Positions 24,196 to 32,105 of a stretch of DNA of 64,000 bases are shown one piece after another; the first letter of the stretch is position 1, and each line of letters opens with the position of its first letter. The position numbers were made by a program, and so were the translations under genes. Below the pieces are notes generated by a model. The model saw only the letters and a list, made by a program, of their open reading frames with translations, did no database searches and was not told the DNA's origin. This DNA is from an uncultured Actinomycetota bacterium (GTDB lineage Bacteria; Actinomycetota; Actinomycetes; JAFAQI01), in NCBI GenBank assembly GCA_963770565.1, contig CAVYQE010000001.1, positions 736,001 through 800,000 of the forward strand, read 5' to 3'.

Positions 24196-24255
24196 TAGTT
24201 GTTATCGCAAGTAACGTGCCCACCCTACGCGCTATTCCTTGCACTCGCAAATAAT
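24196..24255. promoter_or_regulatory. Two palindromic operator candidates between yceI and marR
   Basis: TAGTTGTTATCGCAAGTA (24196-24213) and ATTCCTTGCACTCGCAAATAAT (24234-24255), both TTG-N6-CAA in an AT-rich divergent promoter region. Confidence 0.55.
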
Positions 24256-24280
24256 TGCCGATCCCCGTATTCTGTTGGGC

Positions 24281-24796
24281 ATGACGACGCCGAGCCCGTG
24301 CTCGACCCGGCCGCTCGATTCGGCCGAGATGAGCGCCTGGCATGCCCTGATCCGGGCTCACAGCCGGGTCGTTCGGCGGCTGGAGGCGGAGTTGGAGGCC
24401 GAGCACGCCCTGTCGCTGCCGGCCTACGAAGTGCTCGCTCATCTGTCCGAGGCCCCGGAGCAACGGCTGCGGATGACCGAGCTCGCCCGGCACGCGGTCC
24501 TCACCCCGAGCGGGCTGACCCGGCTGGTCGACAAGCTGGCCCGTGACGGCCTGGTCGAGCGCCAGCGCTGCGGCGCCGACGCCCGGGTGGTCTATGCGGT
24601 GCTCACCGAGGAGGGGATGGCCCGGCTGGTGGCCGCGTATCCCACCCACGTGCGAGGTGTTCGCGAGCACTACCTCGACTGGCTGACCGAGGCCCAGAAG
24701 GACGCGGTCTCGGACGCGCTCGGCGATCTGGCCGGCGCCTGCCGGCACGAGGCCTGCCTCAACGAGTTGGCGGTCGACGTCCCCACCCAGTCGTGA
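24281..24796 (+). CDS. MarR family transcriptional regulator
   Basis: YEVLAHL, LRMTELA, SGLTRLVDKL, GLVER, DARV..LT. Confidence 0.9.
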   Translation: MTTPSPCSTRPLDSAEMSAWHALIRAHSRVVRRLEAELEAEHALSLPAYEVLAHLSEAPEQRLRMTELARHAVLTPSGLTRLVDKLARDGLVERQRCGADARVVYAVLTEEGMARLVAAYPTHVRGVREHYLDWLTEAQKDAVSDALGDLAGACRHEACLNELAVDVPTQS

Positions 24797-25308
24797 CCGT
24801 CGTACTCCGGCCGGCCCGCACGTCCGATGTCGCGCTGATCCGCCGGCTGATCGACCTCTATGCCGACAAGGGGATCCTGCTCGACAAGCCGACGGTCACC
24901 TTGTACGAGGACGTCCAGGAGTTCGTGATCGCCGAGGTCGACGGCGAGCCGGTCGGGTGCGGTGCATTGCACGTCCTCTGGTCGGATCTCGCCGAGGTCC
25001 GGACCCTCGCGGTCGACCCGGTCTGCCGGCGCAACGGGGTCGGGCACGCCTTGTTGGCGGAGCTGCTCGAGCGAGCGCGGGCGGTCGGGGTCAGCCGGGT
25101 GTTCTGCTTGACCTTCGAGGTGGCCTTCTTCGAGGCGCATGGCTTCACGCCGTTCACCGCCCAGGCAGTCGAGCCAGGGGTCTATGAGGAGCTGCTGCGC
25201 TCGTACGACGAGGGCGTCGCGGAGTTCCTCGGGCTGGAGCACGTGAAGCCGAACATCCTCGGCAACACCCGGATGCTGCTCGAGCTCGGCCCGCCCGAGC
25301 CGACCTGA
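24793..25308 (+). CDS. argA: Short GNAT amino-acid N-acetyltransferase (actinobacterial ArgA-type)
   Basis: LYEDVQEF, GCGALHV, LAEVRTLAV, FCLTFEV, ILGNTRML. Confidence 0.8.
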   Translation: MTVVLRPARTSDVALIRRLIDLYADKGILLDKPTVTLYEDVQEFVIAEVDGEPVGCGALHVLWSDLAEVRTLAVDPVCRRNGVGHALLAELLERARAVGVSRVFCLTFEVAFFEAHGFTPFTAQAVEPGVYEELLRSYDEGVAEFLGLEHVKPNILGNTRMLLELGPPEPT

Positions 25309-26110: not shown

Positions 26111-28387
26111 ATGACGATGCCTGTTGACACCCGCGGCGAGCCCGCCGAGCCCGCCGACGCAGCCCCCGAGCGCGCCCGTCCGCACGCGCTGGTCGAGCCC
26201 GAGGTCCTGCTCGAAGGCCTCAACCCGCAGCAGCGCGCCGCGGTAGTCCACGAGGGTGGTCCGCTGCTGATCGTCGCCGGCGCGGGCTCGGGGAAGACCC
26301 GGGTCCTCACCCACCGGATCGCCTGGCTGCTCGGCGAGCGCGGGGTGCAGCCCGGTCAGGTCCTGGCCATCACCTTCACCAACAAGGCCGCCGGCGAGAT
26401 GAAGGACCGGGTCGCGCGGCTGGTCGGCAACCGGGCCCGGGCGATGTGGGTGTCGACCTTCCACTCGGCGTGCGTCCGGATCCTGCGCGCGGAGGGCAAG
26501 CGGCTCGGGTTCACCAGCTCGTTCTCGATCTACGACGCGGACGATGCGCGGCGGTTGATGACGACGGTCTGCCGCGACCTCGACTTCGATCCGAAGCGGC
26601 TGTCCGCGCGGTCGGTGAGCGCCCAGGTCTCCAATCTCAAGAACGATCTCGTCGACTTCGAGGATGCCAAAGCCCGCGCGACCAGCCATCTCGAGCGGAT
26701 GGTGGCCGATGCCTACGAGCTCTACCAGCGCCGGCTCGGGCAGTCCAACGCGCTCGATTTCGACGACCTGATCATGACGACCGTGACTGTGCTGCAGTTG
26801 TTCCCCGACGTCGCCGAGCACTATCGCCGACGGTTCCGGCACGTGCTGGTCGATGAATACCAGGACACCAACCACGCCCAGTACGTCCTGGTGCGCGAGC
26901 TCGTTGGCTCCGGCCCCGATGCGGCCGAGCTCTGCGTGGTCGGTGACGCCGACCAGTCGGTCTATGCGTTTCGTGGCGCGACGATCCGCAACATCCTGCA
27001 GTTCGAGGCGGACTACCCCGACGCGAAGGTGATCCTGCTCGAGCAGAACTACCGGTCGACCCAGACCATCCTCAACGCTGCCAATGCGGTGATCTCCCGC
27101 AACCCCGACCGCAAGCCCAAGCGACTGTGGTCCGATGCAGGCGACGGCGAGAAGATCGTCGGGTACGTCGCGGACAACGAGCACGACGAGGCGGCTTGGA
27201 TCGCCGGCGAGATCGACCGGCTGGCCGACGAGGCCGGCGTGCGTGCCTGTGACGTCGCGGTTTTCTACCGGACCAACGCGCAGAGCCGGGTCTTCGAAGA
27301 GGTCTTCATCCGGGTCGGCCTGCCTTACAAGGTGGTCGGCGGGGTTCGGTTCTACGAGCGACGCGAGATCCGCGACGCGCTGGCCTACCTCAGGGTGCTG
27401 TTCAACCCGGCCGACTCGGTGTCGCTGCGACGGATCCTCAACGTGCCGAAGCGCGGGATCGGCGACACGTCGGAGGCGACGATCGCCGCGATGGCCGAGC
27501 GCGACCGGGTGACCTTCTGGGAGGCCCTGCACAAGGCGGCGGAGGACGGCACCCTCGCGACCCGTTCGCACAACGCCGTGCAGTCCTTCGTGACCCTCAT
27601 CGACGGGCTGACCGAGCTGGCCGGGGCCGCGCCCGGCGACGTGCTCGAGGCGGTGCTCGACCGCACCGGCTACCTGGCCGAGCTGCGGGCGAGCTCCGAT
27701 CCGCAGGACGAAGGCCGGGTCGAGAACCTCGAGGAGCTCGTGTCGGTCGCGCGGGAGTTCGAGCAGACCCGGCCCGAGGGCACTCTCGGCGACTTCCTGG
27801 AGCAGGTGTCCCTGATCGCCGACGCCGACCAGGTGCCGAGCCCCGACGGCTCGGACGGCGTGGTCACCCTGATGACGCTGCACACCGCGAAGGGCCTCGA
27901 GTTCCCGGTGGTGTTCCTTTCAGGGATGGAGGACGGCGTCTTCCCGCACCTGCGCTCGATGGGCAACTCCGCCGAGCTCGAGGAGGAGCGCCGGCTCGCC
28001 TACGTCGGGATCACCAGGGCGGAGAAGCGGCTGTACGTGAGCCGCGCCAACATCCGCTCGGCCTGGGGGTCGCCGGCGTACAACCCGCCGTCCCGGTTCC
28101 TCGACGATCTGCCGCCCGAGCTGATCGAGTGGCAGGGCGCCACCGAGGTCAGCGCGTCGCAGCTCGCGATCGAGCGGGCGAATCGGCGGGGCCGATCGGC
28201 GGGCACCGGGCTGCGCCCGATCCCGTCGCTGTCGCCCGGGGACCGGGTGACGCATGACGCATTCGGGATGGGCCGGGTGGTCGCGGTGCGCGGAGTGGAC
28301 AGCTCCGCCGAGGCGGAGGTCGATTTCGGCGACGAGGTGGGCCGAAAGCGGCTCCTGCTTCGTTACGCACCGATCGTGAAGCTCTGA
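26111..28387 (+). CDS. pcrA: ATP-dependent DNA helicase PcrA/UvrD
   Basis: AGAGSGKT, VDEYQD, NYRS, HTAKGLEF, EERRLAYVGITRA, C-terminal Tudor-like domain. Confidence 0.97.
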   Translation: MTMPVDTRGEPAEPADAAPERARPHALVEPEVLLEGLNPQQRAAVVHEGGPLLIVAGAGSGKTRVLTHRIAWLLGERGVQPGQVLAITFTNKAAGEMKDRVARLVGNRARAMWVSTFHSACVRILRAEGKRLGFTSSFSIYDADDARRLMTTVCRDLDFDPKRLSARSVSAQVSNLKNDLVDFEDAKARATSHLERMVADAYELYQRRLGQSNALDFDDLIMTTVTVLQLFPDVAEHYRRRFRHVLVDEYQDTNHAQYVLVRELVGSGPDAAELCVVGDADQSVYAFRGATIRNILQFEADYPDAKVILLEQNYRSTQTILNAANAVISRNPDRKPKRLWSDAGDGEKIVGYVADNEHDEAAWIAGEIDRLADEAGVRACDVAVFYRTNAQSRVFEEVFIRVGLPYKVVGGVRFYERREIRDALAYLRVLFNPADSVSLRRILNVPKRGIGDTSEATIAAMAERDRVTFWEALHKAAEDGTLATRSHNAVQSFVTLIDGLTELAGAAPGDVLEAVLDRTGYLAELRASSDPQDEGRVENLEELVSVAREFEQTRPEGTLGDFLEQVSLIADADQVPSPDGSDGVVTLMTLHTAKGLEFPVVFLSGMEDGVFPHLRSMGNSAELEEERRLAYVGITRAEKRLYVSRANIRSAWGSPAYNPPSRFLDDLPPELIEWQGATEVSASQLAIERANRRGRSAGTGLRPIPSLSPGDRVTHDAFGMGRVVAVRGVDSSAEAEVDFGDEVGRKRLLLRYAPIVKL

Positions 28388-28477
28388 AACTCCTGTTCGC
28401 GTTCTCTGAACGGCTCCTCAGGTTTGGCCCGTATACCCGGTTAGGCTGGAGTTTCCGCTGATCACGAAAGGGCTCTC

Positions 28478-29347
28478 GTGGGACGCAAGACGAACAAGCA
28501 GCGCCGTCAGGAGCAAGCGGTCACCGCTCGCGAGAAGGCGGCTCAGGCGCGCGTGGAGCATCAGCGGGTCGCCCAACGCCGCCGCGCCATGACGATCTTG
28601 AGCACGGTCGCCGTGCTCGCGGTAGCCATCGCGCTGGTCGCGGTCATCGCGATTCAGGCGCACCACACGAGCAAGAACGATCGGTCGAACGCGGCCGGCT
28701 CGGTGGTTGACAGCGTGACGTCGGTGACTCCCGCGTCGCTCGCGACGATCGGCAAGGGCTCGGCGACGCTGCTGGCGCAGCCGACCAAGGGCGATCCGCC
28801 GCTGACGCTCAATGGCAAGCCCGAGTTCCTGTTCATCGGCGCCGAGTTCTGCCCGTACTGTGCGGCCGAGCGGTGGTCGATCGTCCAGGCGCTGTCGAGA
28901 TTCGGCACGTTCTCGGGCCTGTCGGAGATCCGGTCCGCGGTCGACGACGGCAATATCGCGACGTTCAGCTTCTACAAGTCGAGCTACACCAGCAAGTACA
29001 TCTCGTTCGTGCCGGTCGAGAACGAGGACCGCGCTTCGAAGCTGCTGCAGCCGCTGACGTCCGCACAGGGAAAGATCTTCAAGAAGTACACGAACGGTTT
29101 CCCATTCCTGTATTTCGGCGGGAAGTACTACCAGACCAACGCCGGCTACAACCCGGACGACCTCAGCGGGCTCGATCAACAGCAGATCGCCACTCAGCTG
29201 AAGGACCCGACCAGCAAGGTTGCAACCGACATCCTCGGTGAGGCCAACAACCTGACCGCGACTCTTTGCAAGCTCACCAATAATCAGCCGGCGAGCGTCT
29301 GTCTCACCCCGACGATCACCGACCTGCAGAGCCAACTCGGTGTCTGA
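28478..29347 (+). CDS. DUF929-like membrane-anchored thioredoxin-fold protein (CPYC), paralog A
   Basis: Basic N-terminus plus one TM; GAEFCPYCAAERW, ALSRFG, GFPF, C-terminal CKLTNNQPASVC. Confidence 0.8.
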   Translation: MGRKTNKQRRQEQAVTAREKAAQARVEHQRVAQRRRAMTILSTVAVLAVAIALVAVIAIQAHHTSKNDRSNAAGSVVDSVTSVTPASLATIGKGSATLLAQPTKGDPPLTLNGKPEFLFIGAEFCPYCAAERWSIVQALSRFGTFSGLSEIRSAVDDGNIATFSFYKSSYTSKYISFVPVENEDRASKLLQPLTSAQGKIFKKYTNGFPFLYFGGKYYQTNAGYNPDDLSGLDQQQIATQLKDPTSKVATDILGEANNLTATLCKLTNNQPASVCLTPTITDLQSQLGV

Positions 29348-29804
29348 GTCGCAGAACGTCCGCTGGGCCTGGCCGGCGACCTTGCCGCTCGCGGTTATCG
29401 GATTGGGCGTCTCGGCGTACCTGACCTATGCCCACTTCAACACCTCGGTCGTGCTGTCCTGCCCAGAGACCGGCCATATCAACTGCACGAAGGTCACCAC
29501 GAGCGCTCAGTCGGAGATCTTCGGTCACATCCCCGTGGCGTTGGCGGGGTTGCTCTACTACGTCATCATGGTCGCGCTCGTCACGCCGTGGGCCTGGCGG
29601 GCCGCCAACCCGTGGATCGGCCGGCTGCGGATGGCCGGCGCGATCGCCGGCCTCGGAATGGTCTGCTATCTCGTGTTCGTCGAAGCCGTGCAGTTGAAAG
29701 CGATCTGCCTCTACTGCACCGCGGTGCACATCATCACTTTCTTGCTCTTCATGGTTGTCCTAGCGGCGTACCTGTTGCGGCCGCTCGATCCGAACAAAGG
29801 GTGA
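29340..29804 (+). CDS. Vitamin K epoxide reductase (VKOR) family protein
   Basis: SAYLT, loop cysteines CPETGHINC, S..FGHIPVA, ICLYC..H; 4 TM. Confidence 0.9.
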   Translation: MSESQNVRWAWPATLPLAVIGLGVSAYLTYAHFNTSVVLSCPETGHINCTKVTTSAQSEIFGHIPVALAGLLYYVIMVALVTPWAWRAANPWIGRLRMAGAIAGLGMVCYLVFVEAVQLKAICLYCTAVHIITFLLFMVVLAAYLLRPLDPNKG

Positions 29805-29813
29805 GTTGGCGAG

Positions 29814-30692
29814 ATGGGCCGCGAGAGCAACAAGAAGCGACGGCAGTCGAACGCCGCGACGGCGCGGGAGAAGGCAGCGGCCGCCCGGGAGCTCCAGCAG
29901 CGGGCTGAGCAGCGCCGTCGCGCCCTGACGGTCCTGACCGCCGTGGTCGTGGTCGTCGTCGTCCTTGCCGTGATTGCGGTCGTTGCGCTGACCCACAAGA
30001 AGAAGAGCAGCAACGACCGCAACACCGCATCAGCGAGCGTGGTCACAGCCGTGACCAAGATGCCGGACGCGAGCCTGACCACGATCGGAGAGGGCAACGT
30101 CGTTACGCTGCCGGCTCCGGTCAGCGGTGAGCCGGCGCTCACCTCCGGTGGAAAGCCTGAGTTGTTGTACATCGGTGCCGAGTTCTGCCCGTACTGCGCG
30201 ATCGAGCGCTGGTCCTTGGCCGTTGCGCTGTCGAAGTTCGGCACGTTGTCGGGCATCGGTGAAGTGCGATCCGGGGTGGACGACGGCAACTTCGCGTCGC
30301 TGGACTTCAACAAGACCTCGTTTACCAGCAAGTACCTCGTGTTCACCCCGATCGAAGCTCAGGACCGCAACCGCAACCCGCTGGAGAAGGTCCCGAGCGC
30401 GGACAACGTGCTATGGAACAAGCTCACCAACAATCGACCCGGGTTTCCCTTTGTCGACTTCGGCAACAAGTCCGCGCTGACGGTGAAGGTCCCGCTCGAC
30501 CCGACGGTGCTCGGGACGCTGAACCAACAGCAGGTCGCGGCGCAGCTCAGCAATCTGAGCGGCAAGATCGCGCAGACCATCGGCGGCGGTGCGAATGACG
30601 ACATCGCCGCGATCTGCATGATGACCAACAATCAGCCGTCATCGGTCTGCAGCTCCTCGGTGATCCAAGGGCTCGAATCGAAGATCGGCTAG
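29814..30692 (+). CDS. DUF929-like membrane-anchored thioredoxin-fold protein (CPYC), paralog B
   Basis: GAEFCPYCAIERW, ALSKFG, GFPF, CMMTNNQPSSVC; clearly homologous to 28478..29347. Confidence 0.8.
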   Translation: MGRESNKKRRQSNAATAREKAAAARELQQRAEQRRRALTVLTAVVVVVVVLAVIAVVALTHKKKSSNDRNTASASVVTAVTKMPDASLTTIGEGNVVTLPAPVSGEPALTSGGKPELLYIGAEFCPYCAIERWSLAVALSKFGTLSGIGEVRSGVDDGNFASLDFNKTSFTSKYLVFTPIEAQDRNRNPLEKVPSADNVLWNKLTNNRPGFPFVDFGNKSALTVKVPLDPTVLGTLNQQQVAAQLSNLSGKIAQTIGGGANDDIAAICMMTNNQPSSVCSSSVIQGLESKIG

Positions 30693-31591
30693 CTCCCCGC
30701 GCTGGTCTGGCTGCGCCGTGGCCGGCTCCGCTCGGGTGCGGCCGGCGGCACCGGTGTCTGCTGTTCGATTCGGGTGACTCCGGCTGTGACGGTTGCGCCG
30801 TGGGTGTTGAGGTGCGCGAGAGTGGCCACGATCTCCCGGACGATCCGGCGGTCGATCGGCAGTGACATGTGGCCGACGCCGCGCACCAGGATGTTGCGGG
30901 CCGACAGGTCGGGGTGGTCGACGATCGCGGCCTGCTTGGGCGAGATCATCGCGTCGATGTCGCTCCAGAACGACACGAACCGCGTCTGGCATCCCTCGGC
31001 TGGCGCGTTGAGCTCCTCGACCACCTCGCTTCCCGGCGTCAGTTGCCGGCACACGCCGCGCGGAAACAGCTTCGCGTTGCGGGTGCCCTGATGCGGCGTG
31101 CCAAGGGTGACCAGGGTGTGCACCCGCGAGTCGCCGCCGAGCCGCTGTACGTAGTAGCGCGCAACCAAGCCGCCCATCGAGTGCCCGACGACGTGGATCC
31201 GGTCGTACCCGGACTGCTCGCAGATCGCCTCGACCGCCGAGGCAAGCCGGCGCGCGGCATCGCGCAGGTCGGCGGTCCAGACCCGGTAGTTCATCGTCGA
31301 CACCCGGCCGAACCCGCGCCGGCGCAAGTGACGCCGCAGCAGGGTGAAGATCGAGCGGTTGTCGACCATGCCGTGGATCAGCAGGATCGGGGTGCCGGCC
31401 GCTTCGACGTCGCCGATCAGCAGGCCGCGGCGGATCGGTGAGAGCTTGCCGAGGGAGAACCGGTCGGCTTCGGGCCGGATCCGCTCCTGGGCGACACCGA
31501 ACGGATAGCTGACCAGGTGGGTGGCGATCCAGGCCACCTCGACCGCGGCGCCCTTGATCGTGCGCCGGCTCAGCATTGCCCCCCGCTGCAT
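30689..31591 (-). CDS. Alpha/beta hydrolase (lipase/esterase)
   Basis: LIHG, GHSMGG, LGTPHQG, GVGH; start uncertain (31591 or 31576). Confidence 0.85.
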   Translation of the reverse strand: MQRGAMLSRRTIKGAAVEVAWIATHLVSYPFGVAQERIRPEADRFSLGKLSPIRRGLLIGDVEAAGTPILLIHGMVDNRSIFTLLRRHLRRRGFGRVSTMNYRVWTADLRDAARRLASAVEAICEQSGYDRIHVVGHSMGGLVARYYVQRLGGDSRVHTLVTLGTPHQGTRNAKLFPRGVCRQLTPGSEVVEELNAPAEGCQTRFVSFWSDIDAMISPKQAAIVDHPDLSARNILVRGVGHMSLPIDRRIVREIVATLAHLNTHGATVTAGVTRIEQQTPVPPAAPERSRPRRSQTSAGS

Positions 31592-31703
31592 GGGCGAGAC
31601 TTTACCTGACGACCCGTCAGAGAACCGGTGATCGGCCGATCCGGCCGGCCCACTATTCTTCGGGGTCTGCGACCGTGGGGCCGCGGGCCGAGGAGGTGGC
31701 GTC

Positions 31704-32105
31704 GTGCCGATCCGGGTCGTCGTCGCCAAGCCTGGCCTCGATGGTCACGACCGCGGCGCCAAAGTGGTGGCTCGCGCGCTGCGCGACGCGGGCATGGAGG
31801 TCATCTACACCGGCTTGCATCAGACCCCCGAGCAGATCGTCGCCACCGCGCTCCAGGAGGATGCCCACGCGATCGGGCTGTCGGTACTGTCGGGCGCGCA
31901 CATGACGTTGTTCGCCCGGGTGCTGCAGCTGCTCGAGGAGAGCGACTCGCGCGACATCATCGTTTTCGGCGGCGGCATCATCCCGGATGCGGACATTGCG
32001 CCGCTGAAGGAGCTCGGCGTCGCCGAGGTCTTCACTCCAGGGACTCCGACCACCGCGATCGTGGAGTGGGTCACCAGCCACGTGACGGCCAGCAGCGGCA
32101 CCTGA
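31704..32105 (+). CDS. Cobalamin-binding small subunit of an acyl-CoA mutase (IcmB/MutB-C-like)
   Basis: [10 protein letters not shown] (DxHxxG), SVLSGAH, GGII. Confidence 0.92.

Follow-up and report, generated by a model that had tools for sequence, protein, structure and literature searches.

The question raised by this locus is why two paralogous proteins of DUF929, a family for which no function was given in the literature searched, should flank a gene for a stand-alone vitamin K epoxide reductase (VKOR) homologue. The locus lies within a 64,000-nucleotide stretch (hereafter, the window) of contig CAVYQE010000001.1 from an uncultured Actinomycetota bacterium, and consists of three genes on the forward strand: DUF929 paralog A (28478..29347; 289 amino acids (aa), GTG start), a short form of VKOR (29340..29804; 154 aa, GTG start), and DUF929 paralog B (29814..30692; 292 aa, ATG start). 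Their open reading frame (ORF) coordinates match exactly the tight coupling described in an earlier note on this DNA: paralog A and VKOR overlap by 8 nucleotides (nt; 29340–29347), and VKOR and paralog B are separated by 9 nt (29805–29813). That note also proposed that DUF929 is the oxidase cognate to VKOR. Our comparative and structural analyses support this proposal; they cover the order of the genes, the families of their products and the residues conserved in them, the fold and topology predicted, and how often the two families co-occur and adjoin. The three genes most likely represent machinery for the formation of disulfide bonds in exported proteins, and DUF929 is likely the redox partner of VKOR in that process.

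The product of the central gene matched the VKOR profile PF07884 with 103.2 bits (cut-off 27.5; E 1.6e-29); with none of the three VKOR equivalog models of NCBIfam did it reach the cut-off (best 71.4 of 120 bits). Its AlphaFold2 (AF2) model (predicted local distance difference test (pLDDT) score 88.8) has four transmembrane (TM) helices, at residues 10–33, 66–87, 91–119, and 124–145. Inspection by codon verified that the protein retains both of the cysteine pairs reported previously, with C41 and C49 (CPETGHINC, 29460..29486, forward strand) in the external loop that joins TM1 to TM2, and the active-site CLYC (C123 and C126, 29706..29717, forward strand) at the start of TM4. These four cysteines were invariant across 44 homologues that were 58–84% identical to the window VKOR. 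In the AF2 model both pairs are found at the loop side, as in the solved VKOR of Synechococcus, and a profile match to the latter (4nv6/3kp9, E 3.8e-7) aligned the CxxC and the loop cysteines of the two proteins. The 120 closest homologues listed, from a search range of 84–270 aa, were 116–182 residues in length. By its profile match, four conserved cysteines, and four-helix core, the window protein belongs to the VKOR family; it would oxidize thiols in a quinone-dependent manner.

Both flanking proteins scored above the cut-off (24.6 bits) of the hidden Markov model (HMM) PF06053, paralog A with 87.8 bits (E 9.7e-25) and paralog B with 62.1 bits (E 7.3e-17), so that the proposed DUF929 membership of each was borne out. 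The paralogs are 51% identical over their full length and share the motif G-x-E-x-C-P-[YF]-C-x-x-E-R-W, a cis-Pro loop, and a C-terminal cysteine pair. In paralog A, a codon check placed the CPYC active site (C125, C128) at 28850..28861 and the GFPF loop at 29096–29107, all on the forward strand; the loop contains the putative cis-Pro P209 (29102..29104), an invariant column that precedes strand 210–213 and would take the cis conformation. The second cysteine pair (C264, 29267–29269; C275, 29300–29302) is located in the C-terminal helices. Paralog B has the same architecture on the same strand, with its TM segment at 29931–29987, CPYC at 30186–30197, GFPF at 30441–30452, and second cysteine pair at 30615–30617 (C268) and 30648–30650 (C279). 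Nine residues (G121, C125, C128, R132, F142, S153, P209, C264, and C275, numbered as in paralog A) were invariant in an 83-sequence alignment that reached down to 34% identity to paralog A. Among 126 family rows the active-site motif was CPYC in 94, CPFC in 30, CPIC in one, and gapped in one, and the second cysteine pair was kept in 125. We consider that C264 and C275 probably form a structural disulfide.

The predicted topology of both paralogs would place the CPYC outside the membrane. Residues 1–39 of each protein contain 12 lysines and arginines versus three to four aspartates and glutamates, and are followed by a single hydrophobic segment at residues 40–58 (28595–28651 in paralog A, from charge and hydrophobicity analysis). 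By the positive-inside rule, the N-terminus is predicted to be cytoplasmic and the CPYC domain external. Each paralog has exactly four cysteines, all within the ~230 residues after the TM segment. These codon and charge analyses agree with the basic N-terminus, single TM helix, GAEFCPYC..ERW motif, and GFPF loop recorded earlier for both proteins, and, together with the VKOR model, place the CPYC on the same side of the membrane as the VKOR loop cysteines, as had been supposed. The basic N-terminus (28478–28594 and 29814–29930) was conserved family-wide in the 83-sequence alignment as AR..AAA.R....R...RRR, and was modeled as one helix running on into the TM segment.

The AF2 model of paralog A, built from the same alignment (mean pLDDT 93), comprises an N-terminal helix (residues 6–60), a strand (114–122) that leads into the CxxC, a helix (126–140) with the CPYC at its N-terminus, five short strands (143–183), a further helix (195–204), P209, and a strand (210–213). 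C264 and C275 lie in the C-terminal helical region, and extra helices are only found C-terminally. The model suggests the geometry of a thioredoxin active site, to which a beta-rich insert and a C-terminal extension of helices are added. Comparison with 48,161 chains using VIA-align gave a best Z of 7.3 (root-mean-square deviation 2.0 Å over 86 residues, thioredoxin y1), a modest similarity, as the program warns that Z below 8 may mean a common arrangement only. Of the 50 rows listed, 41 aligned with approximately residues 70–290 and were thioredoxins, TlpA/ResA/DsbE-type proteins, or thioredoxin-carrying constructs; the other nine aligned with the N-terminal helix only. A sequence search of the PDB with paralog A returned only 1lu4 (E 0.036, over the WCPFC/FCPYC segment) and 9fov (E 0.78). 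DUF929 was placed in the thioredoxin clan by HHpred in 2010 (PMC3091736). The predicted CxxC at a helix start, the cis-Pro before a strand, and the similarity to thioredoxins point to a thioredoxin fold, as the earlier note had anticipated, and we base this call on the VIA-align results, the motifs, and the 2010 assignment combined.

A whole-genome profile scan located two DUF929 genes and one VKOR gene in the source genome, all of them within this cassette. When the genome was considered with 40 relatives, DUF929 was present in 19/41 genomes and VKOR in 23/41, and each of the 19 DUF929-bearing genomes had VKOR on the same contig and strand less than 700 bp away. The layouts in those 19 (D, DUF929; V, VKOR) were D-V in 11, D-V-D in seven, and V-D-D-D in one. 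An evenly drawn sample of 400 Actinomycetota genomes contained DUF929 in 15 and VKOR in 92; VKOR was present in all 15 DUF929 genomes and was the next gene to DUF929 in 14. On the Pfam model, the DUF929-linked VKORs of this phylum sample scored 85–107 bits versus 111–152 bits for a higher-scoring kind, which was the only one seen in a number of the phylum's other families. Some of the totals include unpublished genomes (G032, G040, G041, G087, and G357) that have no DUF929 and touch only the background rates of VKOR and Thioredoxin_4. The control genome of Sulfolobus acidocaldarius matched both DUF929 and VKOR.

The linkage also extends beyond the phylum. A scan of one genome per species found at least 627 DUF929-encoding stretches. 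Of the best 78 loci, a set that is biased as it holds those most similar to the query, 65 had VKOR and DUF929 side by side and in the same orientation. Identical rows showed that at least two of the 78 are from genomes that also figure in the set of relatives. The 78 loci were from Actinomycetota, Chloroflexota, Dormibacterota, and one metagenome-assembled genome (MAG) labeled Proteobacteria. Layouts in the 65 linked loci were DV (36), DVD (13), VD (7), DDV (6), DVDD (2), and VDDD (1). Five genomes with a seemingly solitary DUF929 were searched whole, and VKOR was present in all five, in three of them beside another DUF929 copy. Adjacency of the two families, as proposed from the single locus, is thus conserved within the phylum and beyond it (19/19, 14/15, 65/78). 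No third gene family accompanied the pair at more than 22 of the 78 loci, a supplier of reductant of the CcdA/DsbD type included, as judged by a crude stop-to-stop ORF clustering in high-GC DNA in which the top non-module clusters were named by eye.

The source genome, which is 94.9% complete, offers few other candidates for thiol oxidation. Profile scans of it found no DsbB (PF02600), no Thioredoxin_4 protein (PF13462), and no second VKOR. The sole match to the DSBA family was weak (26.5 bits; L017 1270–2088, on the ~261-kb contig C11 of the window genome, G000), and has CPWA in place of the CxxC. No signal sequence follows the likely start of this protein (MATIADFWFDPLCPWAW), which is probably cytoplasmic. 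PF13462 was absent from 10 of the 19 relatives with DUF929 and VKOR and present in nine, never adjoining VKOR. A complementary distribution of DUF929 and Thioredoxin_4 was thereby ruled out, as the nine carry both.

These data suggest a pathway in which DUF929, anchored by one N-in TM helix, would hold its thioredoxin-fold domain outside the membrane and hand the disulfide of its CPYC to paired cysteines in exported proteins. Once reduced, the CPYC would be re-oxidized by C41 and C49 in the external loop of VKOR, from which electrons would pass to the CLYC (C123/C126) at the top of TM4, on to a membrane quinone (menaquinone would be expected in an actinobacterium), and finally to the respiratory chain. 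The proposal that DUF929 is the oxidase cognate to VKOR is supported by the predicted fold, the external CPYC, and the adjacency, as well as by the genome scans, in which DsbB and PF13462 were not detected. A complex prediction with VKOR and residues 36–289 of paralog A returned a score of 0.00, which gives no verdict and is evidence neither way.

Several observations weigh against this assignment. Neither paralog matched the DSBA (PF01323) or Thioredoxin_4 (PF13462) HMM at E ≤ 0.01, and the insert that follows the active-site helix in the DUF929 model is beta-rich, unlike the helical domain of DsbA. A Foldseek search of the PDB gave no match at E ≤ 0.001 (best E 0.029, the weak rows all having a thioredoxin fold), and the VIA-align similarity is, as noted, modest. 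No DsbA was seen among the Foldseek and VIA-align rows listed, which are part of the results. DUF929 is a distinct thioredoxin-fold family and not a member of the DsbA family, and an oxidase role cannot be read from its architecture. The description “DsbA-like” used previously therefore holds for the proposed role and the membrane anchoring, but not for the family or, going by the model, the architecture.

The genomic evidence has its own counterexamples. The exception in the phylum sample (G084) has DUF929 and VKOR on different contigs. For 13 of the 78 best loci no VKOR was found in the fetched flanks, even with an HMM made from the 65 matches and the window VKOR, and in three of the 13 the contig ends less than 400 bp from the gene. 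Two of the five genomes searched whole, both Chloroflexia MAGs, have a single DUF929 that is unlinked from VKOR. The genomes are also related to one another, so that the counts are not independent and their significance is overstated. In the nine relatives with PF13462, DUF929 is not the only candidate partner for VKOR. Lastly, no experiments on any DUF929 protein were found in the literature searched.

Fused proteins add a little to this balance. Among 13 unusually long homologues scanned, P0252 (440 aa) has VKOR (13–141), a basic linker, a TM segment, and DUF929 (249–418) in one chain; as a singleton on one 4264-bp contig it may be an artefact of gene calling or assembly, and it supports the partnership of the two families only weakly. 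The reverse search, from the VKOR side, covered 27 longer VKOR proteins and found none with PF06053. Other singleton fusions were observed as well: DUF929 with an FKBP prolyl isomerase (P0124, 352 aa), DUF929 with LytR_C (P0126, 392 aa), and TIR with DUF929 (P0190, 446 aa). The VKOR-DUF929 and DUF929-FKBP fusions would fit a role in protein folding, with the caveat that P0124 is from a single contig and that any of these singletons could be artefactual.

The presence of two paralogs bears on how the partnership may operate. A maximum-likelihood tree was made with 126 DUF929 domains, leaving out six of 132 HMM matches that covered less than 180 of the 292 profile positions. Both window paralogs fell within one 26-row clade (support 99) made up only of copies from their own family. 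In a second large group, upstream and downstream copies each formed a clade of their own, of 14 rows (support 98) and 22 rows (support 99), respectively. These separate groups indicate that the D-V-D layout arose at least twice and that both copies were long retained, and at least two lineages of downstream copies in the window's family point to repeated gain and loss. Copy number around VKOR is fluid within that family, and both window paralogs are intact and probably active. As catalytic residues are intact across the retained copies, two active enzymes with different jobs are favored, and the paralogs most likely differ in their sets of substrates or in their roles. In one relative (G017; L107 7967–11166), three DUF929 genes in tandem come after VKOR and none precedes it; another (G004; L099 7075–10097) has D-V-D and, on the opposite strand, one more DUF929 match that is only partial.

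The strongest alternative is that DUF929 is a partner of VKOR but a specialized one, either with oxidases that serve few substrates or with one paralog acting as an isomerase or proof-reader and the other as the oxidase. The repeated origin and long retention of the D-V-D arrangement would suit such a division, as would the up to four DUF929 matches in some genomes and the DsbA-type PF13462 protein in 9/19 relatives. The residue before the cis-Pro shows a trend in the same direction, mostly aromatic in downstream copies and often isoleucine in upstream copies, a difference that is confounded by phylogeny. A Cutibacterium plasmid (see below) provides a possible example, with DUF929 encoded 8 nt after a small secreted protein with three cysteines and VKOR undetected among the four ORFs scanned. 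Set against this, the window paralogs both keep the nine invariant residues and the same CPYC, and no other primary oxidase is detectable in the genome. Known isomerases are kept reduced by DsbD/CcdA rather than by a quinone-linked oxidant, which counts against the isomerase version, and no gene of that type recurred beside the module in our crude clustering. Overall, we consider a specialized partner unlikely.

Less probable still is a use outside protein folding, in which DUF929 would donate thiols to VKOR for reduction of a quinone or quinone epoxide, for example in the redox chemistry of lipids or cofactors or in defense against oxidants. VKOR enzymes have non-folding roles elsewhere, and the sequence of the window names no substrate. 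A 2026 article (PMC13486548) puts forward redox modules with viral VKORs that would modify lipids, which counts for this alternative. The external anchored thioredoxin domain with CxxC and cis-Pro, the invariant and probably structural cysteine pair, and a layout like that of established bacterial VKOR partners argue instead for folding, and no conserved third gene points to another pathway. That DUF929 and VKOR adjoin only because their order was inherited, and do not exchange electrons directly, is very improbable, for while the locus is syntenic in the window's own family and counts there are non-independent, the pair recurs in varied genomic contexts across several phyla, co-occurrence is complete (19/19, 15/15, and 5/5 genomes), and the linkage stays when the order varies (DV, VD, DVD, DDV, VDDD).

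A redox partnership of DUF929 with VKOR would be of a known kind. The DsbA-VKOR and MdbA-VKOR systems of mycobacteria and other actinobacteria likewise have a stand-alone VKOR and a separate TM-anchored thioredoxin-fold oxidase, with electrons passing to quinone. The window system differs in having two partners instead of one, and in that these belong to PF06053 rather than PF13462 or PF01323 and are modeled with a beta-rich insert where DsbA has a helical domain. The actinobacterial VKORs studied in a phylogeny paper all have a predicted fifth TM helix (PMC4555120); the window VKOR, with four TM helices and 154 aa, in a genome in which no PF13462 was found, is not of that type, and its 103 bits on the Pfam model also separate it from the higher-scoring VKORs of the phylum (111–152 bits). 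The VKOR-thioredoxin fusion of Synechococcus (PDB 3KP9, 4NV2/5/6), whose VKOR core aligns with that of the window as described above, follows the same logic of a four-helix VKOR, one more TM helix, and an external thioredoxin-fold domain, and the singleton P0252 has its parts in the same order. In contrast to that fusion, the parts in the window are separate genes with their own starts, and the partner, from a different family, is larger and carries additional strands, helices at its C-terminus, and another pair of cysteines.

The inferred logic is also shared with DsbA-DsbB of E. coli, in which an external CxxC oxidase is recycled by a quinone-linked four-helix membrane protein. There, the differences are that no DsbB was found in the window genome and that DUF929 is anchored and not of the DsbA family. 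The closest solved structure by sequence is a TlpA/ResA/DsbE-type protein (MPT53, PDB 1LU4; E 0.036, which is marginal), and several proteins of this type had structural Z values of 6.1–6.7. Most of these act in reductive pathways, and we know of no conserved linkage of them to VKOR.

A specialist would therefore be only moderately surprised: a thioredoxin-fold oxidase, VKOR, and quinone are the known elements, and what is new is a partner family other than DsbA that is duplicated around a short four-helix VKOR. No paper linking DUF929 and VKOR was found, in a search that excluded subscription journals and supplements. Among the literature searched, DUF929 appears in print only for its placement in the thioredoxin clan and for an archaeal secretome, the experimental one of Picrophilus torridus, in which DUF929 proteins were detected (PMC8345856).

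If a partnership of DUF929 with VKOR is correct, it would provide a function for a large unassigned family, for which our query search found 4349 clusters at the 90% identity level and 2214 representatives of clusters at the 50% level. It would explain how exported proteins are oxidized in such bacteria, and probably in archaea that carry both families, and would offer a natural test bed for the partner specificity of short four-helix VKORs and a case of repeated duplication of an oxidase around one recycling enzyme. A gap in surveys of Dsb systems would also become apparent. One such bioinformatic survey searched with the Pfam models of DsbA, DsbB, and VKOR (PMC12453122), and organisms with DUF929 and VKOR would score there as having VKOR without a partner. 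Still more broadly, and only tentatively, as we rate it somewhat more doubtful than probable, DUF929 could be a widespread class of primary dithiol oxidases acting outside the cytoplasm, the third after DsbA/MdbA and the VKOR-fused thioredoxins. With a short four-helix VKOR it would then form a self-contained module of two genes in Actinomycetota, Chloroflexota, and Dormibacterota, which would be the whole oxidative-folding machinery where DsbB and DsbA-type proteins are absent, and in which the second copy would have a distinct role as an isomerase-like proof-reader or an oxidase with separate substrates.

The earlier note also suggested that the cassette may be an accessory module, with more A/T-ending codons than its neighbors, and on this point our data disagree with it. 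GC content at third codon positions (GC3) was 0.87–0.88 in the cassette genes, barely below the 0.88–0.94 of eight neighbors (a ninth row, 0.73, was left out as its coordinates were wrongly cut). Total GC was 0.63–0.64 versus 0.66–0.70, and this lower value is mostly due to codon positions 1 and 2, that is, to amino-acid composition. Of 18 relatives fetched for comparison, 11, which represent at least five genera, have the order pcrA-cassette-hydrolase, whole or in part as contigs allow; the remaining seven have the DUF929-VKOR pair in another context. With near-normal GC3 and conserved synteny, an accessory or horizontally transferred origin as read from composition is not supported. In a relative with neither DUF929 nor VKOR (G013; L116 393–1132), the hydrolase-pcrA junction is ~740 bp in length and contains no DUF929 or VKOR ORF of at least 60 aa, which indicates that the cassette was gained or lost within the family, in a direction that the junction does not give. 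Based on these comparisons, the cassette is an old resident of its lineage that was gained or lost in some genera and not a recent insertion.

Only one of 72,556 plasmid records had a DUF929 homologue, which gives no sign of routine mobility. That match is in Cutibacterium modestum (AP024748.1; L118 2948–4145) and encodes a protein of 271 aa with 31.6% identity (PF06053 E 3.2e-18). The ORF that ends 8 nt before it encodes 124 aa, with a signal-peptide-like N-terminus and three cysteines, and the two may represent a dedicated oxidase and its substrate. No Pfam-detected VKOR was seen in the four adjacent ORFs scanned, and ParA-like and NikA-like genes are nearby.

A Pfam scan of the genes flanking the cassette in the window agreed with the neighbors named previously. 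A pcrA/UvrD helicase gene (26111..28387) lies 5' of the cassette, and an alpha/beta-hydrolase gene (30689..31729), formerly described as a lipase gene, is convergent with it and shares the last four bases of paralog B. The 90-nt spacer between pcrA and paralog A contains a purine-rich GAAAGGG (28467..28473, forward strand), read from the sequence, that ends 4 nt before the GTG and may be a ribosome-binding site. Simple scans of 28000–31200 found no sigma-70-like promoter and no terminator on the forward strand, so that the cassette may be co-transcribed with pcrA. Beyond the hydrolase, the conserved block continues with what we take from their translations to be a B12-binding-domain-like gene and sucC. 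On the other side, 5' of pcrA (24239–25308), are ORFs that we likewise read as MarR-like and GNAT-like, and these accompany the pcrA-cassette block in several relatives.

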